Made by a program: the position numbers and the translations under genes. A stretch of DNA of 64,000 bases from Bdellovibrionota bacterium (lineage in GTDB: Bacteria; Bdellovibrionota_G; JALEGL01; DATDPG01), in assembly GCA_035292885.1 (NCBI GenBank), contig DATDPG010000019.1:59570-123569 (forward strand). Reading direction: 5' to 3'. Below, piece by piece: positions 13,312-49,189 of the stretch. Every line of letters begins with the position of its first letter. Within the stretch, counting starts at the first letter, position 1. The notes below the pieces were generated by a model. The model made no database searches, had not been told where the DNA came from, and saw only the letters and a program-made list of their open reading frames with translations.

Positions 13312-13910
13312 AAGGAGATTCCTTTCTTCGTATGGCAATCCCGGCAAAACTGAATCTGATGGCACGAACCGCACGAATGAGGATTCGCCCGCGCTTCGAC
13401 GGAATGGACGTAAAGGAACGTGCGCGGATGGACGGTCTGAAGGATCGAATCACGCTGCATGTGGCAATCGACACAGCTCGATCGATCGTGGCACGTGGCG
13501 CAGGAAAACTCGTCCAATCGGGCGAAGACGGCGTGCCGCTGCGTCCAATCGAGACGATGGTCCGCCGGGATTAGCGGCCGGACATCCTTGTGACAGAGAA
13601 AACATCTTTGGGTGGCCTGCGCGGCCATCTCCGGTTTGCGATGACAGTCATGGCACTTCCATACCGGGCCGGCTTCGCTCGTTATTACGAGCGGTTTTAG
13701 GGCGTCGCGCTGCGGATGACAGCTCAAGCAATGGAGATTCTTCTCCTGAATTACAGGCGCATGAACGGCGTGGTTAAACAAAATGGATGGATGAACGGTT
13801 TGCTTGGGTGTGACCTGGCGCCAGTCCCCGGTGCGGACGCATCCGCCGATGATCGTAACGGCGATCGGCGCGATCCAGAAAAAATGTTGGCGTAGTTTAG
13901 AAATAAACAT
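13308..13910 (-). CDS. Heptahaem cytochrome c, probable lipoprotein
   Basis: MFISKLRQHFFWIAPIAVTIIGGC (lipobox-like). Seven motifs: CLSCH, CHDCH, CFLCH, CATCH, CVDCH, CGSCH, CRDCH, including paired CxxCH-x4-CxxCH units. The start overlaps the barrel gene stop by 14 nt. Confidence 0.85.
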   Translation of the reverse strand: MFISKLRQHFFWIAPIAVTIIGGCVRTGDWRQVTPKQTVHPSILFNHAVHAPVIQEKNLHCLSCHPQRDALKPLVITSEAGPVWKCHDCHRKPEMAAQATQRCFLCHKDVRPLIPADHRLDWTQRHAVFARLDEFSCATCHDRSSCVDCHMQRDSILQTVHPRTFLYVHSVEARANPHSCGSCHQIQFCRDCHTKKGISF

Positions 13911-15126
13911 AACGAGCCGAGACTCCCACGCGAACATCCGCCGTTTGATCGATGTTCGAATTGATTTCGCCGTTTACGCCGAGCTCAAGTCCCCATCGCC
14001 ATGCGTACAAGCATCCCAGGCCGGTGTGAAGAGCGTAATCTTCCGACCCGGTCACCTTGTCATATCGAGCGACGGCGAAAGATCCTCTGGCCCGCCATCC
14101 GAGCGAGATCTGTTTTTCGAGCGAGCTCGTGAATCCTCCGGATCGTCCGCCGTAACTATCCTGAAAGAATGCTCGGACGGAGGCGATCCAGGGGCGAACC
14201 CCCTCGATCCATTGAAACCCGCCATCCACCATATGGCCGTCCTCGGATCGGGTGGTCAGAACTTCATAACGTTGAAAACTGTACCCCGCCTGAACCGAAA
14301 GTTTCGAAGAGACTCGGTACGCCGCTGCACCTCTCCCTTGCCATTCCTCCCCCTGGGAAAAGAGCGTAAAAATCCGGTCCTGCCATTCGAAATTATCGCG
14401 GGATTCGTTGTATCGGGCGAACTCTCCGGAGAGGAGCAAGGCATCCATGGGGAAGAGTTCAAGTCCTGCACGACCTGATCCGAAAAGGGTTTTGTCCGCC
14501 AGGTAATCGATCGAACCATATAATAGAGGCGTCCAAAAAAACGGGAGCGCTTGTTTGGCTCCGGCCACGATCCATTGCCGGTGGACTGTCTCCAGATCGT
14601 CTTCATACCGATACCCCATCGTCAGTGTGGTCGAGGAGAACGGTTGCAGCGTCAGGTCGGCGCCGATCAACGTGGATTCTTCGTCGAAATCGGAAATTTC
14701 AGGATGCCTTCGCAAGCCGCCGAAGAGACGTCCCGATATTCGTCTCCGGGTACCCAGAGAAACTTGCGCGCCGTCGAGAAGGATCAGCGACTCGAACGGG
14801 TTCGCCAGAAATCTCCCCGCCTGGGCGTTCATTCCCCATTCGGGCCGATTCCACGAAACACTCGCTTGGTAAAGATCGGCCTTGTTGTCCGGATTTATCA
14901 GATTGGACAAAATCTGGCCGTCCATTGAAAATTCCCCTTGCAGCGGGGAAATTGGGGCGCTCAGGCGAAGGCGATTCACCCACGGGAGTTCCCGGTCTCC
15001 GATCAGATTTTCCCGGATCTGATTATACGATCTGAGTTCGACGGTCGGACCGGCCCAAGAGAGTGTTGGAGCAAGAATGACCATCCATCCCAGCGTCCGA
15101 TACACCCCTCGAAAAAGAAATGGCAT
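13897..15126 (-). CDS. Outer-membrane beta-barrel (porin component of a porin-cytochrome module)
   Basis: Signal peptide MPFLFRGVYRTLGWMVILAPTLSWA, alternating amphipathic strands, and a C-terminal ...VSARYVYF (aromatic terminus). Paralogous by eye to 49972..51312 (AGRFLANPFESLILLDG vs AGRQFRQEFESLYFDG). Confidence 0.65.
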   Translation of the reverse strand: MPFLFRGVYRTLGWMVILAPTLSWAGPTVELRSYNQIRENLIGDRELPWVNRLRLSAPISPLQGEFSMDGQILSNLINPDNKADLYQASVSWNRPEWGMNAQAGRFLANPFESLILLDGAQVSLGTRRRISGRLFGGLRRHPEISDFDEESTLIGADLTLQPFSSTTLTMGYRYEDDLETVHRQWIVAGAKQALPFFWTPLLYGSIDYLADKTLFGSGRAGLELFPMDALLLSGEFARYNESRDNFEWQDRIFTLFSQGEEWQGRGAAAYRVSSKLSVQAGYSFQRYEVLTTRSEDGHMVDGGFQWIEGVRPWIASVRAFFQDSYGGRSGGFTSSLEKQISLGWRARGSFAVARYDKVTGSEDYALHTGLGCLYAWRWGLELGVNGEINSNIDQTADVRVGVSARYVYF

Positions 15127-15203
15127 ATGGATATTTTAGTGTTCGTCTCCCGAAGAATAAGAACCATGATATGCATCATGCCGGGATAATTCCCGTCAAG
15201 GGC

Positions 15204-16301
15204 ATGATCAAAGAAATGCGCGCTCGGCATCCATTGGGGTTGTGGAGTCTTATTTTCACGTTGCTGAGTGTTTCCCCGGCGCTGGCGGAAAAGGAGAAAC
15301 CTAAGAGCGGCTGTATCGCCGAGGGATGCCATGCCGTTCTCATGAACGCGAAAGTCGTGCATTCGGCGATCGAGGATGGCGCATGCGACGGATGCCATAC
15401 ACCTTCGGAGGGGAGCAGTCCCGACCAGGCGGGTGCCAAACATAAATTCGAGAAGATCGACGTCGGCCAGGCCTGCGGAGATTGCCATGAGGCCGCGAAA
15501 GACAAATCGATTCACAAGCCGTACGGCGAAGCGAAGTGCACCGCTTGCCACAATCCGCACTCGTCCGACCAGCCGGCTTTGTTGCGGGAAGAGTCGCCGG
15601 CACTTTGCCAGCCATGCCACGAAAAGATCGCCGCAATTTCCTCGCGAGGTTCGAGCGATCATCTGGTGGCCGACGGAAAACTCGCCTGCCTGAGCTGTCA
15701 CGAAGGTCACCTGTCGAAAATACCGAAACTTCTCCGAAAATCGCCGAAAGAACTCTGCTTGGGATGTCACAACAAGGAAATCTCGACACCTCAGGGAACT
15801 CTGGTCGATATCGCCGGTAAGCTCACCGACAAAAAAGCGACCGTCCATGACCCCGTCGCCGATGGGTGCGTCTCTTGCCATAATCCGCATGGGAGCGAAC
15901 TCCCGCGGCTCCTCGTCCGTTCGTATCCGACGGCCTGGTACGGCAATCCATCGATTTCTGCGTACGGCCTCTGTTTTGAGTGCCATGAAGCGGCCGGTTT
16001 TGAAGCCAAGGAGACCGAGGAGGGGACGGCGTTTCGAAACGGCAAGAAAAATCTCCATGCGGTCCACATCTTGAACGATCCGCTGGGCCGCTCCTGTTCC
16101 GCCTGCCACGACGTGCATGCGGCGGCGGGAGAGCACCTCATTCCGTCGCAAGTTCCCTTTTTCGGTTTCTTGGTTCCCACGAATTTCAAGACGGCGGAGA
16201 ACGGCGGCAGCTGTTTCCCGGGTTGCCATGAAGCGAGAGCCTACGATCGCTTGGAGGCTGTGCCTCTATCTAAGCCGGACTCGGGACACCCGAAACCTTA
16301 A
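15204..16301 (+). CDS. Periplasmic multihaem cytochrome c (9 canonical + 2 non-canonical motifs)
   Basis: Start taken at MIKEMRARHPLGLWSLIFTLLSVSPALA. Canonical motifs: CDGCH, CGDCH, CTACH, CQPCH, CLSCH, CLGCH, CVSCH, CFECH, CSACH. Non-canonical: CIAEGCH (CX4CH) and CFPGCH (CX3CH). Repeated CHNPH signature. Confidence 0.85.
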   Translation: MIKEMRARHPLGLWSLIFTLLSVSPALAEKEKPKSGCIAEGCHAVLMNAKVVHSAIEDGACDGCHTPSEGSSPDQAGAKHKFEKIDVGQACGDCHEAAKDKSIHKPYGEAKCTACHNPHSSDQPALLREESPALCQPCHEKIAAISSRGSSDHLVADGKLACLSCHEGHLSKIPKLLRKSPKELCLGCHNKEISTPQGTLVDIAGKLTDKKATVHDPVADGCVSCHNPHGSELPRLLVRSYPTAWYGNPSISAYGLCFECHEAAGFEAKETEEGTAFRNGKKNLHAVHILNDPLGRSCSACHDVHAAAGEHLIPSQVPFFGFLVPTNFKTAENGGSCFPGCHEARAYDRLEAVPLSKPDSGHPKP

Positions 16302-16406: not shown

Positions 16407-16910
16407 TTGGAACCGAACGGAAGATGGCTTTTGTATGCGTGTTGTTGCGTAGGGTCGGCACTGATCGTCTCCGGATGTCAGAGCGGGAGCGGTCAGCCGA
16501 TTCAATACAATCATAAAGTTCACGTGGAAGAGGCGGGAATGGATTGCGTGTCGTGCCACGTCAACGTCCAGAGCGGCGCCCGCGCCACGATTCCGAACAT
16601 CGACGTATGCCAGGATTGCCATTCCGAGGAGCCTTCGGCGGATAAAACGGAACTGAAGAAGTTATTCTCTTATACTTCGTCGAATAAAAAGATTCCTTGG
16701 CGGAAGGTTTACCGTGTGGACGCGCATATCTTTTTTTCGCATCGAAGGCACGCGGTTCTCGGGAACATTTTGTGTGAAACATGTCACGGAAAGGTTGGGG
16801 AGAAAATGACTCCGGTGACCGGACGGGCCGTGGCCATCACGATGAAAGGTTGCATGGATTGCCATGAGAAGAGGGGGGTAGCTAATGACTGCCTTCTTTG
16901 TCACCGGTGA
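16407..16910 (+). CDS. Pentahaem cytochrome c lipoprotein (ActA/QrcA-like)
   Basis: TTG start. LLYACCCVGSALIVSGC lipobox. Motifs CVSCH, CQDCH, CETCH, CMDCH, CLLCH. Sits directly upstream of the molybdopterin-family subunit. Confidence 0.8.
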   Translation: MEPNGRWLLYACCCVGSALIVSGCQSGSGQPIQYNHKVHVEEAGMDCVSCHVNVQSGARATIPNIDVCQDCHSEEPSADKTELKKLFSYTSSNKKIPWRKVYRVDAHIFFSHRRHAVLGNILCETCHGKVGEKMTPVTGRAVAITMKGCMDCHEKRGVANDCLLCHR

Positions 16911-16939: not shown

Positions 16940-19444
16940 ATGGCGAATATTGACCGAAGAAAATTCCTGAAGATCCTCGGCGCGAGCGCGACTGGAACGG
17001 CGCTGGGGGGTACGGCAACGGGCGCCATGGCCTGGCTTTGGAAGGTCCCGGACCACCTAATTGAAGAAGCGTTGCGTGGACCCGGGTTCGAGACGTTCAA
17101 GAATTCCGTCTGTCAATTGTGCCCGGCGGGTTGCGGCATACGGGTCCGACTGATCGATAACATCCCCGTCCGGATCGACGGGAATCCGACACACCCGATC
17201 AATCGTGGAGGCATCTGCCCGCAGGGCGCGGCCGGCCTCGATTTTCTGTTCCATCCCGATCGGATTCAGACGCCGCTCATCCGTGTGGGGCCGAGGGGGA
17301 AGGGGGAATTCAAAGCGATCGGTTGGGACGAGGCGCTGGGCAAATTGGCTGAACGTTTGGGAACCCTACGACAGAAAAGAACCCCCGAGCAGCTGGCCTG
17401 CTTCGTTTACGAAAAACGCGGGTTGATGCACGAAACGATCGGTCGATTCATGGACGGATTCGGATCGCGAAATTTGATCGCAACGGACGACGGGGAGCAC
17501 GATTATCTGCCCTATCAGCTCCTCTTCGGCTGGAAGAACCTGCCGGCGTACGACATCGAGAATGCGCGCTACCTGCTGAGTTTCGGCGCGAACATTCTGG
17601 ACGACGGCGTTTCTCCGCTGCACGCGATTCACGGATACCGGAAAATGAGGGAAGGCGCCGCCGGGGAACGGGGAAAGTTTGTTTTCGTGGATTCCCGGCA
17701 TTCCGTGACCGCCGCCAGCGCGGATGTTTATCTGCCGATCCTGCCCGGAACCCACGGAGCGTTTGCGCTTGCCGTGGCGTATGTGTTGATCAAAGAACGG
17801 CATCTCGATACGGCGTTTCTCCGCGACCACGTCGACGGCTTTGAGTCCTGGACCGACGACCGGGGGAATCGTCACGCGGGCTTCAAGGACTATGTCCTCG
17901 CGGACTTCTATCCCGAACGCGCCGCGAAGATCACCGGAGTTCCCGCGGAGAGAATCATCGACGTGGCCCGGAACTTCGGAAGAACGCGCCTGTCGTTGGC
18001 AGTCGTGGGAAATTTGGGCACCGATACGACCAACGGCCTCTGGAACGCGCTCGCGGTTCTCTCGCTGAACGTTCTCGTCGGGAATATCGAAACCAAGGGG
18101 GGCCTTCTTGTTCCGCGGGCGGCACCGTTTTCAAAACTCCCGGTCGTTCGTCCGGATGAAATCGCGAAGCGAGGGCTGAACAAACCTCTCCTCTTCGAAG
18201 CCGAGAATCGCCAGGCTCCCTTGGTTTCCGACTCCATGGGCCTCGCGTGCGAACGGATGGCCAAAGGCGAACCGTATTCCATCGATACGCTCTTGGTCTA
18301 TGGCACCAACCCTGCGTTTGACCACCCGTACGCGAAGAGTGTTCGCAAAGCGCTCGAGAAGATTCCGTTCATCGTCTCGTTTTCGGGAATTCGGGACGAG
18401 ACTGCGGAATATGCCGATCTGATCCTCCCCGATCATGCGTTTCTCGAAAAATGGTTCGATAGTGCCGACACGCCCGGCATCAAGTTCGCTCACGCGTCGG
18501 TCGGTTCCCCGGTAGTGAATCCCCTTTATCAAACCCGGCACACGGGAGATGTCCTGACGGAAGTTGCGGCGAAGCTGGGAGGGAGTGTGGCCCAGGCATT
18601 TCCACAATCGGATTTCCTTTCGGCCTTGCAGCAAAAGTTCAAGGGGATTTTCGCTTCCGGCGAGGGAACCGTCGTATCGGGCTCGTTCGAGGAATCGTGG
18701 GCGCAGTTCCTTAAAGAGCGGGGCTGGCAGAACCTCGTCTACGAGTCCTTCGAAGGTTTCTGGAAGGTATTGGCGGAGCGCGGCGGGTGGTGGGATCCGA
18801 CGCAGGATGTGATGTCTATCAAAGAAGCGATTCAGACGCGCACGGGGAAAATTATGCTCCGGCTCGACGAGCTTCAATCCAAAGCAAGTGAAGCGGCACG
18901 ATCCGTGGGTAAGGAAAATACCTCCCCTGAAGCCGCAAGCCGGATACTGGCTGCCTGGGGAATTCGAGAAACCGCTGACGCCGCCTTTCTTCCACACTAC
19001 GAGGAGCCCACGTTCACGGGCGAAGTAAAAGAGTTCCCGTACGTGTTGGTCACGTTCGGCTTGCTTTCAAATCGCAGAGGTTTCGGCTCATTTTCGCCGT
19101 TGCTCCAGGAAATGTTTGGTTATCCCGAGCGGATTTACTGGGATTCTTGGGTGGAATTGAATCCCCATACGGCGCACGAGCATCATCTTGTTTCGGAAGA
19201 CTGGGTGAAAATCTCGTCGCCGGCGGGGTCGCTTCGCGCGCGGGTTGTTTTCAATGAAGCGTTGGAGCCCCATACGGTGGCCGTACCGTTCGGCATGGGT
19301 CATACGTCCGGCGGGCGTTACGCCAAGGGCGTGGGTGTGAATCCCTATGAGATTCTGACGGAAGTGAGCGACGTCTTGCGGGGAAAGCCGGCGAAAGTCG
19401 CGACGCGCGTGAAAATTGAGAAATCCGAAAGGAAGGTCCGCTAA
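16940..19444 (+). CDS. Molybdopterin-oxidoreductase-family large subunit (PsrA/ActB1/QrcB-like), Tat-exported
   Basis: Twin-arginine signal MANIDRRKFLKILGASATG. FS0-type motif CQLCPAGC-x27-C. 834 aa with family-typical blocks (GWDEALGKLAERL, LLSFGANILD, LVYGTNPAFDHP). Confidence 0.85.
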   Translation: MANIDRRKFLKILGASATGTALGGTATGAMAWLWKVPDHLIEEALRGPGFETFKNSVCQLCPAGCGIRVRLIDNIPVRIDGNPTHPINRGGICPQGAAGLDFLFHPDRIQTPLIRVGPRGKGEFKAIGWDEALGKLAERLGTLRQKRTPEQLACFVYEKRGLMHETIGRFMDGFGSRNLIATDDGEHDYLPYQLLFGWKNLPAYDIENARYLLSFGANILDDGVSPLHAIHGYRKMREGAAGERGKFVFVDSRHSVTAASADVYLPILPGTHGAFALAVAYVLIKERHLDTAFLRDHVDGFESWTDDRGNRHAGFKDYVLADFYPERAAKITGVPAERIIDVARNFGRTRLSLAVVGNLGTDTTNGLWNALAVLSLNVLVGNIETKGGLLVPRAAPFSKLPVVRPDEIAKRGLNKPLLFEAENRQAPLVSDSMGLACERMAKGEPYSIDTLLVYGTNPAFDHPYAKSVRKALEKIPFIVSFSGIRDETAEYADLILPDHAFLEKWFDSADTPGIKFAHASVGSPVVNPLYQTRHTGDVLTEVAAKLGGSVAQAFPQSDFLSALQQKFKGIFASGEGTVVSGSFEESWAQFLKERGWQNLVYESFEGFWKVLAERGGWWDPTQDVMSIKEAIQTRTGKIMLRLDELQSKASEAARSVGKENTSPEAASRILAAWGIRETADAAFLPHYEEPTFTGEVKEFPYVLVTFGLLSNRRGFGSFSPLLQEMFGYPERIYWDSWVELNPHTAHEHHLVSEDWVKISSPAGSLRARVVFNEALEPHTVAVPFGMGHTSGGRYAKGVGVNPYEILTEVSDVLRGKPAKVATRVKIEKSERKVR

Positions 19445-20131
19445 ATGCCGCGATGGGGAATGGTGATCGATCTCGATAAGTGCACCGGCTGCGGCGCTTG
19501 CGTGGCCGGGTGCAAAGTGGAGAACAATGTCGCCGTCGGCTCGGCTGAACTCGGGCGGGAAAACCGAGCCATGTTCTGGATGGAGATGGTGAAGTTCGTG
19601 GAAGGGGAACACTATCCCGATGTGCGGATTCGGTACGTGCCGCGGCCTTGCTTTCAATGCGACAACCCACCGTGCACCCGTGTTTGTCCCGTCCGCGCGA
19701 CGTATCTCTCCGATGAGGGGATTGTGGCCCAAATCTACGCCCGCTGCATCGGATGTCGCTATTGCCAAGCGGCCTGCCCGTACACCGTCAAGTCTTTCAA
19801 CTGGTACGAGCCGAAGTGGAGCCAAGAACGGTCCAGTTGCTTGAATCCCGATGTGTCTCAGCGGCCGAAAGGGGTCGTGGAGAAGTGCACGTTTTGTCAC
19901 CACCGCCTGCAGGTGGCGCGGGAGAAAGCACGGGCCGAAAACCGATCTCTCCGCGAGGAGGATTACAAAGTGGCTTGCCAGGACGCCTGTCCGGCCGGAG
20001 CGATATTGTTCGGAGACTTGGAAGACAAGTCGACGCAGGTGTTCAAGCTCAGCAAGAGTCCGCGTGCCCAACGTCTCATGGAAGATCTCGGAACCGAGCC
20101 GAAGGTCTTCTACCTTTCGAGGGGAGGATGA
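19445..20131 (+). CDS. 4Fe-4S ferredoxin-type subunit (PsrB/NrfC/ActB2-like)
   Basis: WGMVIDLDKCTGCGACVAGCKVENN, RPCFQCDNPPCTRVCP, CIGCRYCQAACPY, KCTFCHHR. The start abuts the upstream stop (TAAATG). Confidence 0.9.
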   Translation: MPRWGMVIDLDKCTGCGACVAGCKVENNVAVGSAELGRENRAMFWMEMVKFVEGEHYPDVRIRYVPRPCFQCDNPPCTRVCPVRATYLSDEGIVAQIYARCIGCRYCQAACPYTVKSFNWYEPKWSQERSSCLNPDVSQRPKGVVEKCTFCHHRLQVAREKARAENRSLREEDYKVACQDACPAGAILFGDLEDKSTQVFKLSKSPRAQRLMEDLGTEPKVFYLSRGG

Positions 20132-20132
20132 C

Positions 20133-21485
20133 ATGAAAGCCCGGCCGGAAGATCTGGGAGCGGAGGAACATCTCCTCAAACCGCTTCATCGGGTTTCCCC
20201 GAAGCTTCTCGTTCTTTGCGGCCTGCTTTTCCTGGCGGTTCTCAACATGCTCTTCGCCTTCGCGGGACAGGTTTGGTTCGGTCTCGGTGTCACCGGAATG
20301 AATCAGCCGGTGACGTGGGGTTTCTATATCGTCAACTTCGTCTTCTTCATCGGGATCAGCCACGCGGGGACGCTCATTTCCGCGATCCTGCGCTTGTCAC
20401 AGGCTGAATGGAGGCGGCCCATCACGCGAATGGCGGAAGTCATTACGGCCCTCGTTCTTGCGATCGGCGGTATCCAGCCGATCATCGATCTGGGAAGGCC
20501 GGACCGGGTCTTCAATATCTTTACGTCGGGCAGACTCCAGTCGCCGCTTTTGTGGGATGTGACGTCGATATCGGCCTATTTTATGGCCAGCACGGTCTTT
20601 CTCTATTTGCCCCTCATTCCGGATATCGCGCTTCTTCGGGACCGGGGAGGAAAGCTTCGCTGGGCCTACGACCTGATGTCCTGGGGATATCGCGGGACGG
20701 AACGCCAGAAGCACGTGCTGGAACGAGCCATGACGATCATGATGATCATTGTCATCCCGATCGCCGTATCCGTTCATACGGTGATCTCCTACATCTTCGC
20801 CATGACGATTCAGCCGGGGTGGCACAGCACGATCTTCGGCCCTTATTTCGTGTGCGGGGCGATCTTTTCCGGAATCGCGGCGCTCTTGATCGTCATGATC
20901 GCCTTTCGGAAGGCCTATCACCTGGAGGACTACTTAAAACCCATTCACTTCTCCTACCTGGGACAACTTCTTTTGATCATGTCGCTCCTCTGGTTTTACT
21001 TCACGTTTTCGGAATACCTTACGGCCTTCTTCGGGAACGAACCGCAGGAACTTCGTGTCGTGAATTATAAATTTACGGGGGCATACTGGCCGCTCTTCTG
21101 GGGGATGATCGTCGCGAACTTCGTCATTCCGGTGGCTCTTTTGAGTTCACCCAAAATCCGAACCATCCCGAACATCTTGGTGGCGTCGATCTGCGTGGTG
21201 ATCGGAATGTGGCTGGAGCGATTAAACATCGTGGTTCCGTCGCTCGCGAATCCGAGGCTCCCATACGCGACGGGCTTCTATATTCCCTCGTACACCGAAT
21301 GGTCCCTTTTCTTAGGGATGGCGGCGCTTTTCGTCTTGATGTTCATCGGCTTCTCCAAGTTTTTCCCGCTCATCTCGGTTTGGGAAATTCAGGAAGGGAG
21401 GACGCACGGCGTGAAAGAGGTGACCGAAAGGGTCGAGAGCTACCTTCCTCCGATGGCGCTCGAAGGAAAGGGGCGGGATTCATGA
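20133..21485 (+). CDS. NrfD/PsrC/ActC-like polytopic quinone-interacting membrane subunit
   Basis: The track ORF 19851.. is an extension overlapping the FeS gene. The real start is MKARPEDLG at 20133, 1 nt after the FeS stop. 450 aa with about 10 TM helices (GFYIVNFVFFIGISHAGTLISAILRL etc). Confidence 0.8.
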   Translation: MKARPEDLGAEEHLLKPLHRVSPKLLVLCGLLFLAVLNMLFAFAGQVWFGLGVTGMNQPVTWGFYIVNFVFFIGISHAGTLISAILRLSQAEWRRPITRMAEVITALVLAIGGIQPIIDLGRPDRVFNIFTSGRLQSPLLWDVTSISAYFMASTVFLYLPLIPDIALLRDRGGKLRWAYDLMSWGYRGTERQKHVLERAMTIMMIIVIPIAVSVHTVISYIFAMTIQPGWHSTIFGPYFVCGAIFSGIAALLIVMIAFRKAYHLEDYLKPIHFSYLGQLLLIMSLLWFYFTFSEYLTAFFGNEPQELRVVNYKFTGAYWPLFWGMIVANFVIPVALLSSPKIRTIPNILVASICVVIGMWLERLNIVVPSLANPRLPYATGFYIPSYTEWSLFLGMAALFVLMFIGFSKFFPLISVWEIQEGRTHGVKEVTERVESYLPPMALEGKGRDS

Positions 21486-21715
21486 CGAAAAAGAAAATTC
21501 TTTTTTTCAGCCAGCTCGTCTCTCTGGCGGGGATCTGGGTCTTCGTCTTGGGAATCAGCGTCTGGATTCTCCATCTCATCCGGATGGCCAACAAGCTTCA
21601 TGACGCTCCGACGGCGTCCGTATCGATCAGCCTGGTGGCCATTCCCGTCTTTCTCACAGGCGCGAGCGTGCTGACATATGTCTTCGTCGGCATACAGAGA
21701 GGTGGAAAGGAATAA
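21482..21715 (+). CDS. Small two-TM membrane protein (ActD-position subunit)
   Basis: ATGA overlap with the NrfD-like stop. MTKKKILFFSQLVSLAGIWVFVLGISVWIL...ISLVAIPVFLTGASVLTYVFVGI. Confidence 0.55.
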   Translation: MTKKKILFFSQLVSLAGIWVFVLGISVWILHLIRMANKLHDAPTASVSISLVAIPVFLTGASVLTYVFVGIQRGGKE

Positions 21716-21719
21716 TGCG

Positions 21720-22931
21720 ATGAACGGGCGGATTCCGATGGCCGTGTTCACCGTCGTTTTGGGCGCATCCTTCATGCTCGGCGGCTTCGCTCGGAGTGAG
21801 GAGGAGAATTGGCTTCCATCGGAGCCGCTCAAGGGGCGAGTTGTCTTCGAGCAAAAGCACTGCCCGCAGTGCCATTCGATCGGAGGCGCGAAAGGCGGGG
21901 TCGGTCCCGATTTAGCCGAAGCGGGAACGTATTTTCACGGGAGCTTTCTCCAGCTCTCATCCATTTTATGGAACCACATTCCGGACATGCTGGTGGAATA
22001 CAAAACGCGAAATCTTTCTTGGCCGAGTTTCTCCGAGGACGAGGTCGGCTATCTGATTTCCTATCTGTACTATCTGCGATACTTGGGAAGCCCGGGCGAT
22101 GTCGCCAACGGCCAGCGCCTCCTCCAGACGAAAGGGTGCGTCGCCTGTCATGCCGTCGGGAAACAAAAAAAGGCGGGGGACGCGCCTCCGCTGGATCAGC
22201 TCAAGAAATATGTTTCGCCGCTCTACCTGGTGCAGGCGGTTTGGAATCACGGGCCCCGGATGCAGCGGATGATCGAACAAAAGGGAATCAAGCGGCCGAC
22301 ATTCGACGGTCAGGAAATCAGCGACATGAGCGCGTACATCCGCAACGTAAGCCGCTGGAACACCGAGGAGAAAGTGTATCTCTCCCCGGGCGATCCGAAG
22401 AACGGAGAACGGGTGTTTGAAAGCAAGGGGTGCGTCAAGTGTCACTCCGAACAAAGGGGGAGGAAGCGGGCGCCGTCGCTGGAGAAGTCGAGCCTGAATG
22501 AGAGCGCGGCGGGCATCGCGGCGCTGATGTGGAACCATGCGGATGTCATGATGAGTTCGATGAAAGAGGAGAAAATCAGCTGGCCGACGTTCGAAGGGCG
22601 CGAGATGCCCGATCTGGTCGCATACCTGTTCTTTCTGGATTTTCTGGAACCGCCGGGAAACGCCGCAAAGGGCAAGGAGCTATTCGGCCAGAAACAATGT
22701 TCCTACTGTCATTCGATCCACGGAGCCGGGGGTACCATCGGACCCGATCTCGCGGTCGTCGGTTCTCTTTCCTCCACCCGGTCGATCCTCCGGATGATGG
22801 TGAATCACGCGGAAAACATGTCGGAAGCCGTCCTGGGCGCCGGGAAAGCCTGGCCGGTTCTGGGCGGTGACGAGATGAATAACATCTTCGCGTACTTAAA
22901 AAGCGTCGAACGGAAAGAAAAAAAGAAATAG
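21720..22931 (+). CDS. Tetrahaem cytochrome c built from four tandem class-I-like domains
   Basis: Start MNGRIPMAVFTVVLGASFMLGG (RBS GGAAAGGA). CPQCH, CVACH, CVKCH, CSYCH, each about 100 aa apart and each followed by a (W/V)NHxxxM motif. Paralog at 37130..38365. Confidence 0.85.
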   Translation: MNGRIPMAVFTVVLGASFMLGGFARSEEENWLPSEPLKGRVVFEQKHCPQCHSIGGAKGGVGPDLAEAGTYFHGSFLQLSSILWNHIPDMLVEYKTRNLSWPSFSEDEVGYLISYLYYLRYLGSPGDVANGQRLLQTKGCVACHAVGKQKKAGDAPPLDQLKKYVSPLYLVQAVWNHGPRMQRMIEQKGIKRPTFDGQEISDMSAYIRNVSRWNTEEKVYLSPGDPKNGERVFESKGCVKCHSEQRGRKRAPSLEKSSLNESAAGIAALMWNHADVMMSSMKEEKISWPTFEGREMPDLVAYLFFLDFLEPPGNAAKGKELFGQKQCSYCHSIHGAGGTIGPDLAVVGSLSSTRSILRMMVNHAENMSEAVLGAGKAWPVLGGDEMNNIFAYLKSVERKEKKK

Positions 22932-22945: not shown

Positions 22946-23512
22946 CTACCTTCGCAATTTAGACAGAAGGGAGGCCAGTGTTCGAGCTTCCCCGGCGCCA
23001 TACCGGCGGGTCAATTTCTTCAGGAGCGGGAGATCCAGCTTTTCACGCGAGACCTCCAATACCCCTCGCACGTCATCCATATCTTTAGGTCCCCCGGCGA
23101 AGATTTTCATCGCAATAAAATCCTCCGCCCCAATGATCCGTATGTGGCCTCCCATAAAGGCGGCCTCCAGAGCTCTGGACAGAGCTCCCGCTTCCATCCC
23201 TCGAATTCCCAACAACAAATCCACTCGGTTTTCGTAGGCATCCGCAAGCATGAGTACCGCCGTCACCGGGTCATCGACATCTCCTTTACTCAATTCCACA
23301 AGAAAACCCGCCCGATGCATCTCCTTTTCAAGTTCAGGCAAGTCGCCTGATGGCAGCGAAATGACTACATCCGCGTCTTGGCTGGCGCGAACCAGACCAT
23401 GGAAAGCGGCAGCAATCGCACCCACCACGGCATACGGAATCTTCAAATGATTCAAGATGTCGACCGCGTCCAAGAGGAGCAGCGTGGATTGTCCAGGTCC
23501 CGTTGTCTTCAT
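22946..23512 (-). CDS. Nucleotidyltransferase-fold protein (MNT/AbiEii-like), probable TA-type component
   Basis: VVGAIAAAFHGLVRASQDADVVI (hG-x-n-DxD NTase motif) and C-terminal IIGAEDFIAMKIFAGGPKDMDDVRGVL. Paralog at 42597..43094. Confidence 0.55.
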   Translation of the reverse strand: MKTTGPGQSTLLLLDAVDILNHLKIPYAVVGAIAAAFHGLVRASQDADVVISLPSGDLPELEKEMHRAGFLVELSKGDVDDPVTAVLMLADAYENRVDLLLGIRGMEAGALSRALEAAFMGGHIRIIGAEDFIAMKIFAGGPKDMDDVRGVLEVSREKLDLPLLKKLTRRYGAGEARTLASLLSKLRR

Positions 23513-26427: not shown

Positions 26428-28017
26428 GTGAAGCGTTCGGCCCAGGTCGTTCAACCGGTACCGCCTTCTGGGGAGGTGGGGCGGGAGTATCCGGGCTTAT
26501 ACGAAGAACTCGACCAGCTGCGACGAAAGCGGTTGACGCTGGTGGCTACCGTCGGCGCGTTGATGTGCCTCACGATTCAAGTGATCAACTTCTGGACCCA
26601 AGCCGGCCCGCGGATCTATCCGCGGATGGAACCGGAGATCCTCGATCGGGCCACACTGCTCTTTCACGCCGCTTCGTTTCTTTCAGCCGCTTTCCTGTTT
26701 CGAATTCGTTCGCTTCAGACACAGACGGTTCTCGCTCTCGATCTCCTCTTGTTTGGGTTGAACATTCTCGCTCGATCCCTTGCGACGATCTGCATCGTTG
26801 AAACGGGCGATCATTTTCCGGGAATCGAGGGTATTTCCCTTGCGGTGATTTTGCATGGGGTATTCGTTCCGACCGGTATCACGATACCGATTGTGCTCGG
26901 CGCCTTGGCCACGATCTCCTTCCCGTTGGCCCAAATCGCGGGTTTACACTGGTTCGACTCGATCGCCGCACATTGGCAACAAGTAAGTGGGGCGGAGCCG
27001 TTTGCGTTCTTGCTTACTTTGAACACGCTTACGATCGCCTTTTTCGCCTTTCTCGGCGTTCTGGCCAACCGCGTTTTTTACGGCCTCGCCCGGGACGCCT
27101 ACCGCGCCAAACAGCTTGGGAATTATCTCATTGAAGGGGAACTCGGTTCGGGCGGGATGGGAAAAATTTTGATCGGACGGCATCGTCTGATGCGCCGGCC
27201 GACGGCGATCAAAGTTTTGCGGGCCGAGTTTTTGGGCGGGCCGGAAGCCTTGGCTCGTTTCGAGCGCGAAGTCGAACTGGCGTCAAAGCTTACGCATCCC
27301 AACACAATCGCCATATATGATTTCGGACGTTCGGCCGACGGAACCTTTTACTACGCCATGGAAATGCTCAAGGGGTTAAACCTCCAGGAACTCGTGGATC
27401 AATACGGTCCTCTTCCCTCGCCGCGGGCCGTGCATATCGTAAAGCAAATTTGCGGATCGCTGGCGGAAGCGCATTCGATGGGTGTCGTCCATCGCGACAT
27501 TAAACCGAGCAATATTTTTCTCACGCAGCGCGGAGGTCTGGACGACTTCGTCAAAGTCATCGATTTCGGTTTGGCCAAACAGGTCGCCACGCCCGACGTG
27601 CCGGGTGAGGGCCTTACGGAGGCCGGGCGTCTGTTCGGCACGCCGCATTTTATGGCGCCGGAGACGGCATACGGAGCCGATCGAGCGAGTCCTCAGTCCG
27701 ATATCTACAGCCTGGGCGCGGTCGCTTATTGGCTTGTAACCGGAAAGCGGCTCTTCGACGGCACTCCGGCGGAAATATTGGCCGCGCATGTGAAGACGGT
27801 ACCGAAGCCGCCTTCAAAAGTTTCAGAGGTTCAGATTCCGGCCTCACTCGAACAGACGATACTTACCTGCCTAAAGAAAAAACCGGAGGAGCGACACAAA
27901 TCGGCGATGGAAATCTTCACCGCGCTGGACGGCATCGAAGGGACATCACGTTGGTCAAACGCACAAGCGAGAGAGTGGTGGGAGATCCACCATCCGGGTC
28001 TGTTCACGCATCTTTGA
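26428..28017 (+). CDS. Membrane Ser/Thr protein kinase (N-terminal ~6-TM domain + Hanks kinase)
   Basis: LGSGGMGKILIG, AIKVLR, HRDIKPSNIFL, DFGLAK, GTPHFMAPE. Paralog of 30270..31850. Its 3' end overlaps the convergent gene by 14 nt. Confidence 0.85.
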   Translation: MKRSAQVVQPVPPSGEVGREYPGLYEELDQLRRKRLTLVATVGALMCLTIQVINFWTQAGPRIYPRMEPEILDRATLLFHAASFLSAAFLFRIRSLQTQTVLALDLLLFGLNILARSLATICIVETGDHFPGIEGISLAVILHGVFVPTGITIPIVLGALATISFPLAQIAGLHWFDSIAAHWQQVSGAEPFAFLLTLNTLTIAFFAFLGVLANRVFYGLARDAYRAKQLGNYLIEGELGSGGMGKILIGRHRLMRRPTAIKVLRAEFLGGPEALARFEREVELASKLTHPNTIAIYDFGRSADGTFYYAMEMLKGLNLQELVDQYGPLPSPRAVHIVKQICGSLAEAHSMGVVHRDIKPSNIFLTQRGGLDDFVKVIDFGLAKQVATPDVPGEGLTEAGRLFGTPHFMAPETAYGADRASPQSDIYSLGAVAYWLVTGKRLFDGTPAEILAAHVKTVPKPPSKVSEVQIPASLEQTILTCLKKKPEERHKSAMEIFTALDGIEGTSRWSNAQAREWWEIHHPGLFTHL

Positions 28018-30256
28018 GTAATTCTTTGAGAGCAGATCGTTCTTCGTCCGAGGCAAAGAGCGTGGCTCCGGTCTTTAGAAGGTCGGAAACGACATGGTCG
28101 ATCGGTCGAACGGTTTTTCGCTTTTGTTCATCGCTCAGATCGCCGATAAACGGCCACAGTCCCTTTTTCAGATCGGCGGGAAGGACCTGCTCCAGATATT
28201 CGAGGGCGAAGCTCCTGAGCTTTTCGTTCTCGAGAAGAATTCCATAATAGGCCGCCCGAACCGCCTCGGGCTCCAGCACCAGCGCCAACATACGGAAGGT
28301 ATGCTCGATCCCGAGCTCCCCTCGGCGTCCCACCCGTTCGGACACGAGATCATCCTCTTCCGGCTCGGTTTCATCCAAAAGCCGGTGCAGTTCCCAGACC
28401 GGCTTTCCACGGCTGACTTCCCCTTTCAAGGCTTCCCACACACCCGTCTTCCAATTTGTCTCCGACACCGGAAGGCCATGCTTTCGGCGGTTGGCTAAAG
28501 CGATCGCCGAACGATATCGAACTTCGAACCGTGAGTCTCCCAGAGCCACGACAAGCGCCTCATCCGCTTTGGCGATCGGAACTTTCGCCAGGACACGGGG
28601 GATTCTCCTGCGGATGACGAAATCGTTGTTTTCGTCCCGGAGAATCCCCGCCAACACGTGGAATCCGCCAGCCCCGACTCGAACCAAAGCGTGCGTGACA
28701 AGATCCTGAAGATCTTTTTGTGCCAGGAGACGGACGAGAGTCTCCGCATGGCTTTCATTCCAGTCCGTTTTCTCCATCAGCGCTTTTCGAACCTCGGTGG
28801 GATTTTTGGATTGAATCCGTTCCAATGTCGTGCTCTTCGTTGGCGTGACCGGCGCTTGAGAGACTTTGGCTGCACCCGAGGGTGGAAGGAGACCTCGGGC
28901 CTCCAAGTCGGCGGCTATACCCAGCCGGCTGAAGGTCGCCGTCAAAAGCCCTCTCCCCTCAAATCGGGCATCCGCCAGCATTCGTTCCGGTTCCGCCTTA
29001 TCCCGCAGCTGTTGAACGAGCGTCTCAAAATACTTCCTTCCGATTTGCCGGCTCAGCCCCAAGAAACCGAGGGCTGAGACTCCCACAAGAATCGAAAGGT
29101 ATTTGGAGGGAAGGCCTCCCAAGGTGATGCATAGAAAAATGAGTCCCGATCCGGCCCCTTCGGCAGCCGCGTCGACCAAAGAATCAATGAAGGTCTTCGT
29201 TTTTCGCCGGACCTGCGTGGGAAGAGGGATGTACACAACTTCGACGGCCGACCGAAAAATGGATTTCCGGATCGAATTGTCCGCGCCGCGCGCCAACGTG
29301 GCCGCTATTAATCCGGGCAAGAGAAAAAGCCCGGTGGAGCCGGCCAGCAAAACCATCGGCAGAACTGCGAACGTGGTCCCGACACCCGTCCTCGCCAAAA
29401 GCGGCGCTGTAACAACGACCTGAAGAAGAAGAGAAATAAGGCCGGTCCAACCGTAGAAGCTCCCGAAAAACCCGGCCAGCTGTTCCCTCGACTGCAAGGA
29501 AGCTCGAACTTGTTCCTTGAATTGATAGTCGAGGAGCGTGCTCGCTAACGTTGCCGCGAAAACGATTGAAGCCAACGTCCGCAGATGCTCGTTCCGCCAT
29601 ACGAGATGCAAGCTCTCACGCGTACTGGTCCGTTCGCCCTCCTTTTCCTTAGGGTCCATGTCCTTTCGCGCCGGAAGCAGGACTTGCAGAAGCAAAAAGA
29701 GGCCGACAAGCCCAATTAACGCCGGGATCATTTGAACGAGGCCGATCTGTTTGATCAGCGGCTTGATGGACGTACCCAGAGTGAGGGCGCCGATGGTCCC
29801 TCCGGCGCTGATTAACGCAAACAAACGCTTGGCGCGGCGAATCGGAAAAAATTCCGCCGTGACCACCCAGAAGCCGGAGGTCAAGACGAATGCGCCCAGC
29901 GCCGTCCAGAGGTAAAAGACAACCACGGCGGAAGCATTTTGCGTCGCAACCGGCCAAAGTGCGAGAAGGCCCATCGCGAATAGAAACACCGCGTAACGAA
30001 GGACACGTTGAGCTCCGTACCGGGCCATAAGTTTGGAAAACGTCCCAATCGTTGGCAACGCCAGAACCACGACGGCGGTCGTGATATACGGGAGCGTCTT
30101 GACGTCGAATGTGCCAAGGTAGAGGGCCTCACGAAGGGAGCGCCCGAGAATCATCATTCCGACGACGAAAAACGCGCCGAGAAAACAGAGAGCAACCGTA
30201 GGGAACTCGCCCGGCCTTATGTCAAGCCAACTTGTGAGCCGCTGGGCGGGTTTCAT
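28004..30256 (-). CDS. MFS/TLC-like (nucleotide-transporter-like) permease fused to a C-terminal HEAT-repeat domain
   Basis: N-terminal region of about 420 aa with about 12 TM helices (IRPGEFPTVALCFLGAFFVV...LREALYLGTFDVKTLPYI). C-terminal soluble region has HEAT-like repeats (IPRVLAKVPIAKADEALVVALGDSRFEVRYRSAIALA). Confidence 0.55.
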   Translation of the reverse strand: MKPAQRLTSWLDIRPGEFPTVALCFLGAFFVVGMMILGRSLREALYLGTFDVKTLPYITTAVVVLALPTIGTFSKLMARYGAQRVLRYAVFLFAMGLLALWPVATQNASAVVVFYLWTALGAFVLTSGFWVVTAEFFPIRRAKRLFALISAGGTIGALTLGTSIKPLIKQIGLVQMIPALIGLVGLFLLLQVLLPARKDMDPKEKEGERTSTRESLHLVWRNEHLRTLASIVFAATLASTLLDYQFKEQVRASLQSREQLAGFFGSFYGWTGLISLLLQVVVTAPLLARTGVGTTFAVLPMVLLAGSTGLFLLPGLIAATLARGADNSIRKSIFRSAVEVVYIPLPTQVRRKTKTFIDSLVDAAAEGAGSGLIFLCITLGGLPSKYLSILVGVSALGFLGLSRQIGRKYFETLVQQLRDKAEPERMLADARFEGRGLLTATFSRLGIAADLEARGLLPPSGAAKVSQAPVTPTKSTTLERIQSKNPTEVRKALMEKTDWNESHAETLVRLLAQKDLQDLVTHALVRVGAGGFHVLAGILRDENNDFVIRRRIPRVLAKVPIAKADEALVVALGDSRFEVRYRSAIALANRRKHGLPVSETNWKTGVWEALKGEVSRGKPVWELHRLLDETEPEEDDLVSERVGRRGELGIEHTFRMLALVLEPEAVRAAYYGILLENEKLRSFALEYLEQVLPADLKKGLWPFIGDLSDEQKRKTVRPIDHVVSDLLKTGATLFASDEERSALKELLKDA

Positions 30257-30269: not shown

Positions 30270-31850
30270 CTACGCCGCCTCGGCGAAGTCGACCGGCTGG
30301 CGATGAAGCGACCACCACTCCCTCGCCTGATTCTGCGTCCAGAGTCTGTTGGGTTCACAGGTTTCAAGCGCACCGAGGAACTCGTCCATATTTTGAAAGC
30401 GATCTTCGGGCTTCTTGGCCAGACACCGAAGAACGAACCGGTCCAACGCTTCGGGAATGGCGATCTCGGAGAGTTCGGAAGGTGGTTTAGGGTCGGTCTT
30501 GGCGTGATCGACGAGAAGCTCGACGTTGGACGACGCGGCAAAAAGCGGCTGTCCCGTGAGCAACCAGAAGGTCACCGCTCCCAGATTATAGATATCGGCA
30601 CGATGATCCACTTTCGATGAGCCGTACACCATCTCCGGCGCGATGTACCGAGGGGTCCCGAAAATCACTCCGGTCTTCGTCAAGTGGGAGGCTCCGTCAA
30701 TTTTCATCTCTTTGGCCAGACCGAAATCCAGAACCTTTACGAAATCGTAAATGCCACCCCGTTCCGTCAGAAAAATATTCGCCGGCTTGATATCGCGGTG
30801 AATGATGTCCTTGTTGTGAGCTTCACCGAGCGAGCCGGCGACCTGACGGAGAATATGAATGGTACGAGCGGCCGGCAGGGGACCGTATTTCTCGACGATC
30901 TCCTGAAGGTTTAGGCCGTCCAGGAACTCCATCACGTAAAAAAATTTGTTGTCGTCCGTCCGTCCGAAATCATAAATTGAAATCGTATTGGGATGACTGA
31001 GTGTCGAGGCCAGTTGAACCTCCCGTTCGAAACGTTGGATCGCCGCTCCGGAATCGTCGTCGCCCGGCACAAGCATCTTTAATGCGGTCGGCCGGTGCAT
31101 CATGGCGTGATGGGCGATATAGACCTTTCCCATGCCGCCGCTCCCGATCTCTTTTTCCAGGATGTAATTGCCGACTTGCTTCGCTTGATGGAGGTCCTTT
31201 CGCATGTTGTAAAGCGTCTTTGTGACCAGAGCCGAGACAAGACCATATATCGCGATTTGAATCGCTTGCGCCGGTGTGGCTCCGACCATCGCGTCGTATC
31301 CTCCACGCGTCTCCCAAAAGGTTTGGACGGAAGGGAACCAGAGATAGGACAAGAATCGCATGACGACGAAACCGAGTGTTGCCCAAACGCCCATGCTGAT
31401 CTGGCAACTCAAGAGACAGGGAACAAATGCCGCGTGTACGAAAAGTATCAATGAAATCGGAAAAAGTGGAGCCTCGGCCGGAAATGCGATGGCCCCAACC
31501 CACGTAGCCAGCAAAAGGTTGAAATGGAATACAACGTTATCGATCGTGCGGAGGGTCCCCGCTCGCCAATCCTTCAAGGAACGTAGAAAAAGCAGTGCTC
31601 CGGCAAAAGAAGCGGCATGAATCCATTTGGAAATCAGAACCCAATTCGGCGCGATCACACTTTCCCATTGAACCGGGCCCCACAAGTATTTTGTAATAAC
31701 CCAGCCGATCACACTGAGCGTCAGGCCCAAATAGGAGACGAGAATCAGGCGCTGATGAAGAAGCCCGCACCTCTCCTTCTGAAACGAGTCGCTCGTCTGG
31801 GCGGGCGACGGTTCCTTTTTCTTACAGCAAAGGGGCATCGTGATCGGCAT
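30270..31850 (-). CDS. Membrane Ser/Thr protein kinase (paralog of 26428..28017)
   Basis: IGSGGMGKVYIA, ALKMLV, HRDIKPANIFL, DFGLAK, GTPRYIAPE. The N-terminal polytopic domain is collinear with the other kinase. Lies 13 nt upstream of the transporter-HEAT gene. Confidence 0.85.
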   Translation of the reverse strand: MPITMPLCCKKKEPSPAQTSDSFQKERCGLLHQRLILVSYLGLTLSVIGWVITKYLWGPVQWESVIAPNWVLISKWIHAASFAGALLFLRSLKDWRAGTLRTIDNVVFHFNLLLATWVGAIAFPAEAPLFPISLILFVHAAFVPCLLSCQISMGVWATLGFVVMRFLSYLWFPSVQTFWETRGGYDAMVGATPAQAIQIAIYGLVSALVTKTLYNMRKDLHQAKQVGNYILEKEIGSGGMGKVYIAHHAMMHRPTALKMLVPGDDDSGAAIQRFEREVQLASTLSHPNTISIYDFGRTDDNKFFYVMEFLDGLNLQEIVEKYGPLPAARTIHILRQVAGSLGEAHNKDIIHRDIKPANIFLTERGGIYDFVKVLDFGLAKEMKIDGASHLTKTGVIFGTPRYIAPEMVYGSSKVDHRADIYNLGAVTFWLLTGQPLFAASSNVELLVDHAKTDPKPPSELSEIAIPEALDRFVLRCLAKKPEDRFQNMDEFLGALETCEPNRLWTQNQAREWWSLHRQPVDFAEAA

Positions 31851-37129: not shown

Positions 37130-38365
37130 CTACGGTAAGTGCTTCGCATTCGGACTCGCCGGAGCCAGGCTCGTCAGAAACGCATAGAGATCCGCCATCT
37201 CCCGGCCCGTCAGTTTGGGCCACTTCAAGTGTTGCTCGGTATGCTTCTCTTGCATCTCGGTGGAGTGGTTCCACATCGCCGCGACCATGCCCATGGGGGA
37301 GTTCAATTTGCTGATGGCGGCGAAATCTTTCGCCGCGTTTCGTCCCTTGCCGTTTAAGGAGTGGCACGTCAGGCATTCTCGGTCCCTAACGAGATTCTCC
37401 CCTGTGGCGGGGCTCCCCGGTGCGTCCTCCAGTTTCATGCTGTAGAGATACGCGATGACGTGCGCCATCTCCCCCTCCTTGAAATCCGGGAACGTGAGTT
37501 TCTTTTCTTTCATCATCTCCCACATGGCGGGGCCGTGATTCCACATCTTGGCCGCGATCTCGGTCACGGGATAGTTGAAATCGACCTCAGCGAAATCGGG
37601 CGCCGTGGTTGGTGGTTTGGCACGGAACGAATGGCAATGCATGCACCCTTTTTCGGTCAAGAGTTCCTTCCCCTTTGAGGGATCGCCGAGGTCATAGTCG
37701 CTGGCCGGGAAGACGGTCGGGGCCATATACGAACGGATTCCGGCGGCCAGGGCGTCCATCTCGTCCTCTTCGATGACGGGCCGATCGATCTTGTACTTCT
37801 CAAAAAGCGCCAGCATTTTCGGGCCATGGTTCCACATCGCTTCCGCCAGTCGGATGGGGGAGATGTATTCCTTTTTCGCGCTGATGTCGGGAGCGATTCG
37901 GGCGCCTTCCCCTCCAAATTGATGACAAGAGAAGCATCCCTTTTCCTTCAGCACCTTTCTTCCCATCGATTCCCTCACCGGTTCCGCCATGTACCGGATG
38001 AAAGAGAGATAGCGAACCAGCTCGGACATCTCCTTCGGCGTGAACTTCGGAAAGGCATACCCTTTGGTCTCGATCTTCTTCGCCATTCTCGGAAGGTGAT
38101 TCCACATGACGGAAGAAAGCTCGAGGTATGTACCGTAAAACTTGCGGTTGCCCAGGTCGGGACCGCCGCGGCCCCCCCTCCCGTACACGGAATGGCACTG
38201 CGCGCATCCCTTCTGATGGAAGACTTCCCGACCCGGCCACGGTGAGGCCGAAGTGGCTGCTTCCTGCGCCCGAAGGGCGAAAATGGAGCCGGATGACATC
38301 AGGAGATACGCGAGAATGAATTGCAGGAGGCGGATGCAGTTTCTCCGGGTAGTGGACATAGTCAC
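37130..38365 (-). CDS. Tetrahaem cytochrome c built from four tandem class-I-like domains (paralog of 21720..22931)
   Basis: Signal LLQFILAYLLMSSGSIFALRA. CAQCH, CFSCH, CMHCH, CLTCH, each followed by MWNHxxxM. Confidence 0.85.
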   Translation of the reverse strand: MTMSTTRRNCIRLLQFILAYLLMSSGSIFALRAQEAATSASPWPGREVFHQKGCAQCHSVYGRGGRGGPDLGNRKFYGTYLELSSVMWNHLPRMAKKIETKGYAFPKFTPKEMSELVRYLSFIRYMAEPVRESMGRKVLKEKGCFSCHQFGGEGARIAPDISAKKEYISPIRLAEAMWNHGPKMLALFEKYKIDRPVIEEDEMDALAAGIRSYMAPTVFPASDYDLGDPSKGKELLTEKGCMHCHSFRAKPPTTAPDFAEVDFNYPVTEIAAKMWNHGPAMWEMMKEKKLTFPDFKEGEMAHVIAYLYSMKLEDAPGSPATGENLVRDRECLTCHSLNGKGRNAAKDFAAISKLNSPMGMVAAMWNHSTEMQEKHTEQHLKWPKLTGREMADLYAFLTSLAPASPNAKHLP

Positions 38366-38516: not shown

Positions 38517-38768
38517 CTACTTTGCGGTGCCTTTCTTCCGAAAGATTCGAATAGGAGTTCCCAGCTTGTATAGCTCGCCCACTTTGCAGATGTCTTCGCA
38601 TTGGACGGAGATGCTCGCGCCCACGACTTTTTCGACGTCCGGGATTTCCTCCCATTCCTCCTCCAGGCCGCTGATTTCGGTCGCGACGCGGTCGAGTGTT
38701 GCGTCCGGAACGAGCTTTCCGAAGTGTTTCGTCAAAACCGTTCGGATTTTATCGGCGTCCCGGGGCAT
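38517..38768 (-). CDS. Small acidic hypothetical protein
   Basis: 83-aa ORF between vapC and the tetrahaem gene. No recognisable motif. Confidence 0.4.
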   Translation of the reverse strand: MPRDADKIRTVLTKHFGKLVPDATLDRVATEISGLEEEWEEIPDVEKVVGASISVQCEDICKVGELYKLGTPIRIFRKKGTAK

Positions 38769-39489: not shown

Positions 39490-39551
39490 TACACTATTAT
39501 CGTGTAACACGATTATCGTGTCAATGCCTCGACCGGGTGGTGCCAAGACAG

Positions 39552-49163: not shown

Positions 49164-49189
49164 GTTTTCTCTCCCTCTCATGAAAGTTC

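Follow-up and report, generated by a model that had tools for sequence, protein, structure and literature searches.

The 64,000-nucleotide window analysed here (contig DATDPG010000019.1 of a Bdellovibrionota bacterium, assembly GCA_035292885.1; all coordinates are those of the window) encodes two paralogous cytochromes c of four haem domains each, P1, the product of the open reading frame (ORF) at 21720-22931 on the plus strand, and P2, the product of the ORF at 37130-38365 on the minus strand. We conclude that the canonical class I haem ligand site of these domains, a Met-Pro pair, has been replaced and that a conserved methionine is located on the preceding helix. This methionine, the invariant last residue of a (W)NHxxxM motif 11 residues upstream of the canonical site, is probably the sixth ligand of the haem iron, which would make for His/Met ligation. 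P1 and P2 belong to a widespread, unnamed family built of class I domains in which the Met ligand would be displaced.

Domain structure and motifs of P1 and P2

Both ORFs lie where the initial annotation had placed them, that of P1 extending from 21678 or 21720 to 22931, and a deposited 403-aa 'c-type cytochrome [Bdellovibrionota bacterium]' is 100% identical to P1 from the ATG at 21720. The two proteins share 35% identity. Their description as four class I-like domains each is borne out by four stretches matching PF00034 in either protein (106.8 bits for P1 and 88.5 bits for P2, curated cut-off 21.3) and the domains of the family show the three-helix class I core fold of N-terminal, middle and C-terminal helices. 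In the AlphaFold2 (AF2) model of P1 the four tandem domains are compact, with a predicted template modelling score (pTM) of 0.86.

A direct scan located four CxxCH motifs in each protein, one near the N-terminus of each domain, as well as four (W/V)NHxxxM motifs in each, and every motif string that had been quoted initially was recovered. In all eight repeats Trp, Phe or Arg followed by Pro stands 17 positions past the first residue of the motif, that is 11 positions past the motif Met. In P1, a protein of 403 aa that begins with a signal or anchor helix and has a signal region devoid of a lipobox Cys, the core of domain 1 (21861-22031) contains CPQCH at 21861-21875, WNHIPDM at 21969-21989 and, at the former ligand site, WPSF at 22020-22031; that of domain 2 (22137-22304) contains CVACH at 22137-22151, WNHGPRM at 22242-22262 and RPTF at 22293-22304; that of domain 3 (22431-22592) CVKCH at 22431-22445, WNHADVM at 22530-22550 and WPTF at 22581-22592; and that of domain 4 (22698-22862) CSYCH at 22698-22712, VNHAENM at 22800-22820 and WPVL at 22851-22862. 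In the 411-aa P2 on the opposite strand, the corresponding cores are domain 1 at 38042-38206 (CAQCH 38192-38206, WNHLPRM 38084-38104, FPKF 38042-38053), domain 2 at 37772-37936 (CFSCH 37922-37936, WNHGPKM 37814-37834, RPVI 37772-37783), domain 3 at 37481-37645 (CMHCH 37631-37645, WNHGPAM 37523-37543, FPDF 37481-37492) and domain 4 at 37211-37375 (CLTCH 37361-37375, WNHSTEM 37253-37273, WPKL 37211-37222). The flanking consensus that had been proposed along with these motifs (G-x-x-[LV]F-x-x-K, a GPDL turn and a terminal [AS]YL) holds only approximately, as several repeats read LL, VL or LV at the first of these sites, APPL, APSL or AKDF at the second and RYL, AGI or AFL at the third.

Replacement of the canonical ligand site

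The profile hidden Markov model (HMM) of the family has no gap in its alignment with NorC between CxxCH and the ligand loop, and it places the Trp of WPxF on NorC Met112-Pro113. In CcoO, the sequence of which was verified, Trp120 is separated from Met137-Pro138 by 17 residues, equal to the distance between the motif Trp and the W/R/F-Pro pair in the eight repeats. The best single-domain sequence match in the PDB is Rhodothermus marinus cytochrome c (3cp5), which matches over its full length with 33 bits, and here the HMM puts the WPxF Trp on Met100 and the motif Met on Met89. In this protein (3cp5/6cun) a helix starts at 'HPVM89' and the ligand site follows 11 residues later, which is the spacing of the family. 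However, whereas Met100 is the ligand in Rhodothermus cytochrome c and Met89 is not known to be one, the family carries Trp, Arg, Tyr or Phe at the position of Met100 and has the position of Met89 invariant. It is the agreement among the NorC, CcoO and Rhodothermus comparisons that leads us to conclude that the family no longer has the canonical Met at the ligand site, as the initial annotation had claimed for the Met-Pro segment, and that it carries the conserved Met on the preceding helix.

The domains of the family match NorC (3o0r_C) and CcoO (3mk7_B, 6xkw_o) in fold and length but differ from them in that the Met ligand of the MPxF/Y segment is exchanged for W/R/Y/F and an invariant Met occurs 11 residues earlier. 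Moreover, each of NorC and CcoO is a membrane-anchored subunit of a haem-copper enzyme and has a single domain, whereas the family proteins have four domains and are encoded in an operon resembling those of Qrc and of alternative complex III (ACIII). The scores obtained with FixO (21.8 bits, cut-off 29.6) and ccoO (18.5 bits, cut-off 200) are below family membership, and no gene for a haem-copper oxidase or nitric oxide reductase was seen in the annotated parts of the window. SoxX and TIGR02603 of NCBIfam do reach their cut-offs, yet these scores are sums over the repeated domains and were not taken as membership.

The AF2 model of P1 places the motif Met within the long middle helix of each domain (residues 76-96, 178-188, 263-283 and 364-373), and in two domains it lies four residues past a one-residue helix break at the motif His. 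We suggest that the Met, situated in the first turn past the kink of this helix, would bind the iron from a non-canonical position, and that the motif His, one helical turn ahead of it, would be a second-sphere residue, for instance a partner of a haem propionate.

A different view of the site is obtained with actinobacterial QcrC. Nothing would have moved if the motif Met were the canonical ligand and the about 12 residues following it, WPxF included, had been inserted ahead of the C-terminal helix, the situation seen in QcrC domain 1. The profile alignment to QcrC indeed puts the motif Met on 'NMPKF' of domain 2 and on 'RMPAM' of domain 1, and in domain 1 the latter is followed by a long segment ending in 'PPHF'. 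On the other hand, this alignment is the weaker one, at about 18 bits per domain and with a 6-residue deletion required in domain 2. The QcrC family score (NF050122) of the proteins, 43-49 bits, falls short of the cut-off of 200. We dropped this interpretation, which we hold to be rather unlikely, since the comparisons with NorC, CcoO and Rhodothermus cytochrome c mutually agree.

Identity of the sixth ligand

Evidence on which residue binds the iron comes from the conservation of the motif among relatives, of which a word-indexed search returned 707 proteins at E <= 1e-5, all with generic labels, and an exhaustive profile search 577 clusters (50% identity, E <= 1e-30), almost all of them about 400 aa long. 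In an alignment of 49 domains, whose columns are 41% identical on average, invariance is confined to Gly, the two Cys and the His of the haem site, and the motif Met. NHxxxM is present in 462 of the 477 domains of the 120 best matches and in 289 of the 318 domains from 80 species genomes, and the motif Met itself is missing from no more than 2 and 3 domains, respectively. Even in the most diverse set, the representatives at 50% identity, it is kept in 490 of about 531 placed domains. The residue 11 positions past it is never Met in the 461 domains of close homologues (Trp in 254, Arg in 108, Tyr in 59 and Phe in 19) and is neighboured by Pro in 454 of them, so that the canonical M-P-x-F/Y ligand is absent from 461 of 461 domains as well as from the eight repeats of the window, with W/R/Y/F found at the former ligand position. 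The initial annotation had allowed for another conserved Met as the ligand; the motif Met is the sole Met common to all eight repeats, a second one in the C-terminal helix being present in seven of them.

The conserved candidate ligands are thus the motif Met and the motif His only, which is in keeping with the original proposal of a relocated ligand, either the His or the Met at +4. Of the two, conservation favours the Met, since the His can be exchanged for Lys, Arg, Gln, Ser or Ala while the Met is retained. His/Met ligation by the motif Met accordingly appears the more probable arrangement to us and bis-His ligation the less likely one.

Some points nevertheless weigh against ligation by the displaced Met. 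The QcrC alignment described above, which places the motif Met on the canonical Met, is one of them. Furthermore, the AF2 models contain no haem and the ligation argument rests on conservation. The ligands of the reference proteins (NorC Met112, CcoO Met137 and Rhodothermus cytochrome c Met100) are those of the literature, with which the residue numbering is consistent, and the Rhodothermus sequence used corresponds to the 3cp5 match by its score (32.3 versus 33.1 bits) and by a constant coordinate offset of +7. Finally, about 8% of the placed domains in the most diverse set lack the motif Met, mostly in favour of Ile or Val, and some domains must therefore be otherwise ligated, or unligated.

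But could the motif His be the ligand instead? It would then bind the iron as in Sideroxydans MtoD, a bis-His class I cytochrome and a structural neighbour of the family domains, either permanently or by way of a redox- or pH-linked switch between His and Met. This is argued against by the minority of domains in which the His has given way to Lys, Arg, Gln, Ser or Ala while the Met stays, and by the finding that in the two sets of closer homologues loss of the Met is far rarer than loss of the His. Met and His are lost at similar rates in the most diverse set, and the argument there is one of substitutes, as Arg, Lys and Gln suit a hydrogen bond or salt bridge to a haem propionate and are less fitting for iron ligation. 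We regard bis-His haems as unlikely, if the most serious of the alternatives. Extending this thought, the WNHxxxM helix might present two alternative ligands one turn apart, and redox- or pH-dependent switching between His/Met and bis-His states might gate or rectify electron flow through a four-haem wire that, in many phyla without cultivated members, joins an undescribed complex of the Qrc/ACIII type to a multihaem complex of the Rieske/cytochrome b kind; we offer this as a speculation with little probability.

The loss of the canonical ligand in every domain, together with the few domains that lack the motif Met, would also be compatible with some or all of the haems being five-coordinate or weakly ligated and binding a small molecule, in which case the proteins would be sensors or enzymes rather than simple carriers. 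However, the near-invariant Met is most simply explained as a ligand, the compact four-domain AF2 model speaks against such a role, and an operon shared with electron-transfer subunits fits a haem wire. It thus seems very improbable.

The residue that replaces the former ligand differs between domains throughout the family, domain 2 having Arg, domains 3 and 4 Trp and domain 1 Tyr, Trp or Phe. This suggests distinct roles of the individual haems, for example in the tuning of potentials or at inter-domain or partner interfaces.

With regard to previously described cytochromes, the motif is found in no solved structure and no searchable paper, which speaks to the caveat raised initially that it might be common in a known family. 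Matches in a PDB search with the whole protein ended short of the motif, and a profile of the motif half had no significant match in the PDB, the best one (E 0.19) covering a generic C-terminal helix only. Aquifex aeolicus cytochrome c555 (2zxy) has its Met at the usual sequence position (M-K-P), inside an extra helix, and it lacks WNHxxxM, as does MtoD (4xxl). Full-text literature searches returned no paper on a WNH motif in connection with cytochrome c axial ligands and none on the haem ligands of QcrC or the Met89 position of Rhodothermus cytochrome c.

The P1 operon and its relation to Qrc and ACIII

The gene for P1 closes a compact operon on the plus strand, in agreement with the initial annotation, which had one of the two genes terminate an ACIII-like operon. 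It is preceded by genes for a QrcA-like c7/c3-type cytochrome of 167 aa with five CxxCH (16407-16910), a QrcB-like subunit of the molybdopterin family with a twin-arginine motif and an Fe4S4 domain (16940-19444), a QrcC-like 4Fe-4S subunit (19445-20131), the single NrfD-family membrane subunit of the operon, which is DsrP/QrcD-like (about 20133-21485, start codon approximate), and a membrane protein of 77 aa with two hydrophobic helices and no family match (21482-21715). The ATG of the latter overlaps the NrfD stop codon (ATGA, 21482-21485) and P1 starts 4 bp past its end, which points to translational coupling of the last three genes.

The order pentahaem cytochrome c, molybdopterin-like, FeS, NrfD, two-helix protein and class I cytochrome mirrors ActA, B1, B2, C, D and E of ACIII, the ActA-E gene order being that of Rhodothermus marinus (PMC5928083). 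ActE, too, is a class I cytochrome c and occupies the same operon position as P1, and the two probably have in common that they form the exit end of a haem wire. Different from ACIII, however, ActB is split here into two genes (16940-19444 and 19445-20131) and is fused there; ActF is missing and one NrfD protein takes the place of the two NrfD-like subunits ActC and ActF; and P1 has four haem domains and no lipobox Cys, whereas ActE is a monohaem lipoprotein. The 167-aa cytochrome may correspond to ActA in view of its five CxxCH, although its best family match is QrcA, below cut-off, and the 77-aa protein may correspond to ActD in view of its position and its helices, although it has no family match.

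It is QrcABCD that provides the best family matches of the first three proteins, from the QrcA-like one onward, and has the same order of cytochrome c, molybdopterin-like, FeS and NrfD genes. All scores with the Qrc equivalogs of NCBIfam nevertheless remain below cut-off (QrcA 95 versus 180 bits, QrcB 320 versus 440, QrcC 306 versus 400 and QrcD 39 versus 570). Moreover, the QrcA-like protein here has five haem motifs, and Qrc has neither a two-helix subunit nor a class I tetrahaem cytochrome within its operon. In a 2021 survey of NrfD complexes QrcD is restricted to the Deltaproteobacteria and an operon of the P1 type is not described, and we found no literature on an operon combining Qrc, Rieske, tetrahaem and NrfD components; the tetrahaem protein of the Caldithrix genome paper is NapM, a different protein. 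The six genes probably encode a type of respiratory complex that is undescribed in that survey and in the literature found and that combines features of Qrc and ACIII.

At the head of the operon lies a gene for a DmsE/MtrA-family, decahaem-like cytochrome with nine CxxCH and two variant motifs (15120-16301, plus strand). An ORF of 409 aa that matches DUF2490 weakly (13897-15126, minus strand) runs divergently to it; the product might be an outer-membrane barrel and could form a porin-cytochrome conduit together with the decahaem cytochrome. A gene of the decahaem type is found beside the tetrahaem gene in only 1 of 80 loci and is thus not conserved. Beyond P1, a gene for a DUF6036 nucleotidyltransferase (22946-23512, minus strand) converges on its end. 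In a Bacteroidota contig (L004), a DUF6036/AbiEii gene (18880-19461) is likewise found close to the homologous cluster, and this neighbour may be a coincidence or a recurrent mobile toxin-antitoxin element.

The P2 locus

P2 is located about 1.2 kb downstream of an operon on the same strand that encodes a Rieske iron-sulfur protein (41856-42308), a cytochrome b of the fused b6 and subunit IV type, which is ExtP-like (40790-41941), and a multihaem cytochrome c with nine CxxCH (39552-40916). The proximity of the second tetrahaem gene to a bc complex, noted initially, is thus confirmed, with three small ORFs in between, and the association recurs in other phyla. The intervening ORFs, all on the minus strand, are one of 100 aa that is antitoxin-like and without Pfam match (39244-39546), a PIN toxin-like one that overlaps it and was judged by sequence alone (38829-39257), and one of 83 aa (38517-38768); they may have broken up an ancestral bc-tetrahaem operon. 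A small membrane protein as found ahead of P1 was looked for upstream of P2 and none was found.

Upstream of the bc-type module, and also on the minus strand, lie genes for a CbcL-like fusion of a multihaem cytochrome c with a cytochrome b561-type membrane domain (43237-45168) and for a multihaem protein of 1,180 aa with a PKD domain (45720-49262). Together with the module, this region looks like an electron-transfer island.

Distribution and genomic context of the family

Genomes of at least 498 species encode a relative. The 80 with the best matches, without exception metagenome-assembled genomes, stem from Latescibacterota, Calditrichota, KSB1, Ignavibacteria, Fidelibacterota, Acidobacteriota, Gemmatimonadota, Rokubacteria, Rhodothermales and others. 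A survey of the contexts of the WNHxxxM family, as had been called for initially, shows the Qrc-like operon to be the norm and the bc module to be often adjacent. Within 8 kb of the tetrahaem gene in the 80 genomes we counted NrfD in 72, QrcB-like genes in 68, QrcC-like in 66, QrcA-like in 65, the small transmembrane protein in 58 and cytochrome b in 27, and in 58 of the 80 loci the gene for the small transmembrane protein is directly upstream of the tetrahaem gene. Where at least 6 kb are available on both flanks (35 loci), Qrc-like genes are present in 33 and a bc module as well in 12. In one contig each of Acidobacteriota and Bacteroidota the tetrahaem gene sits exactly between the Qrc-like and bc modules. 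The usual order in the family is pentahaem QrcA-like, QrcB-like, QrcC-like, NrfD, the protein with two transmembrane helices and the tetrahaem gene last, and the arrangement of cytochrome c, molybdopterin-like, FeS and NrfD genes, as in QrcABCD, is kept in most of the 80 loci.

Some members depart from the usual size. Some are doubled, with eight CxxCH in two representatives, and one of 768 aa (P0121) gives two full-length matches; another of 972 aa (P0198) has four matched stretches along with many CxxCH of the multihaem type, and three of 667-689 aa (P0002, P0010 and P0033) have about 200-270 additional, unannotated residues at the C-terminus.

Proposed function

Taken together, we propose that P1 and P2 would act as periplasmic four-haem electron wires made of four NorC/CcoO-like class I domains. 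P1 would be the terminal, ActE-like cytochrome subunit of a quinone-interacting complex of the Qrc/ACIII type, and P2 a diverged paralogue beside the Rieske/cytochrome b/multihaem c complex. Members of the family probably serve as electron carriers that connect these modules of the quinone pool with a partner in the periplasm or the membrane, and their most likely role is that of a wire at the cytochrome end of the quinone-interacting complex, shared with or duplicated for the bc-type module. By analogy with ACIII, our guess is that electrons would flow from quinol to the tetrahaem protein, a direction that His/Met haems would favour.

The potential and the reactivity of a c-type haem are determined by its sixth ligand, both by what this residue is and by where it sits. 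If our assignment is correct, a family with a Met fixed on the preceding helix in place of the Met-Pro ligand would amount to a natural experiment on how class I cytochromes are tuned, and to a warning for annotation pipelines in which the MP motif is taken to indicate ligation. The ligand shift is neat but incremental, and the widespread unrecognised complex may be the more valuable lead. The family marks a conserved six-gene operon commonly encountered among Ignavibacteria, Calditrichota, Latescibacterota, Acidobacteriota, Gemmatimonadota and further groups with few cultured members. Characterisation of the complex would close a gap in the respiratory chains as predicted for many environmental bacteria.

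Some other genes of the window are unrelated to these findings. A gene for a 750-aa TLC/MFS-type transporter-like protein (28004-30256, minus strand) lies between the P1 and P2 loci, and three genes encode Ser/Thr protein kinases, one of them with PilZ (6490-8175, minus strand; 26428-28017, plus strand; 30270-31850, minus strand).
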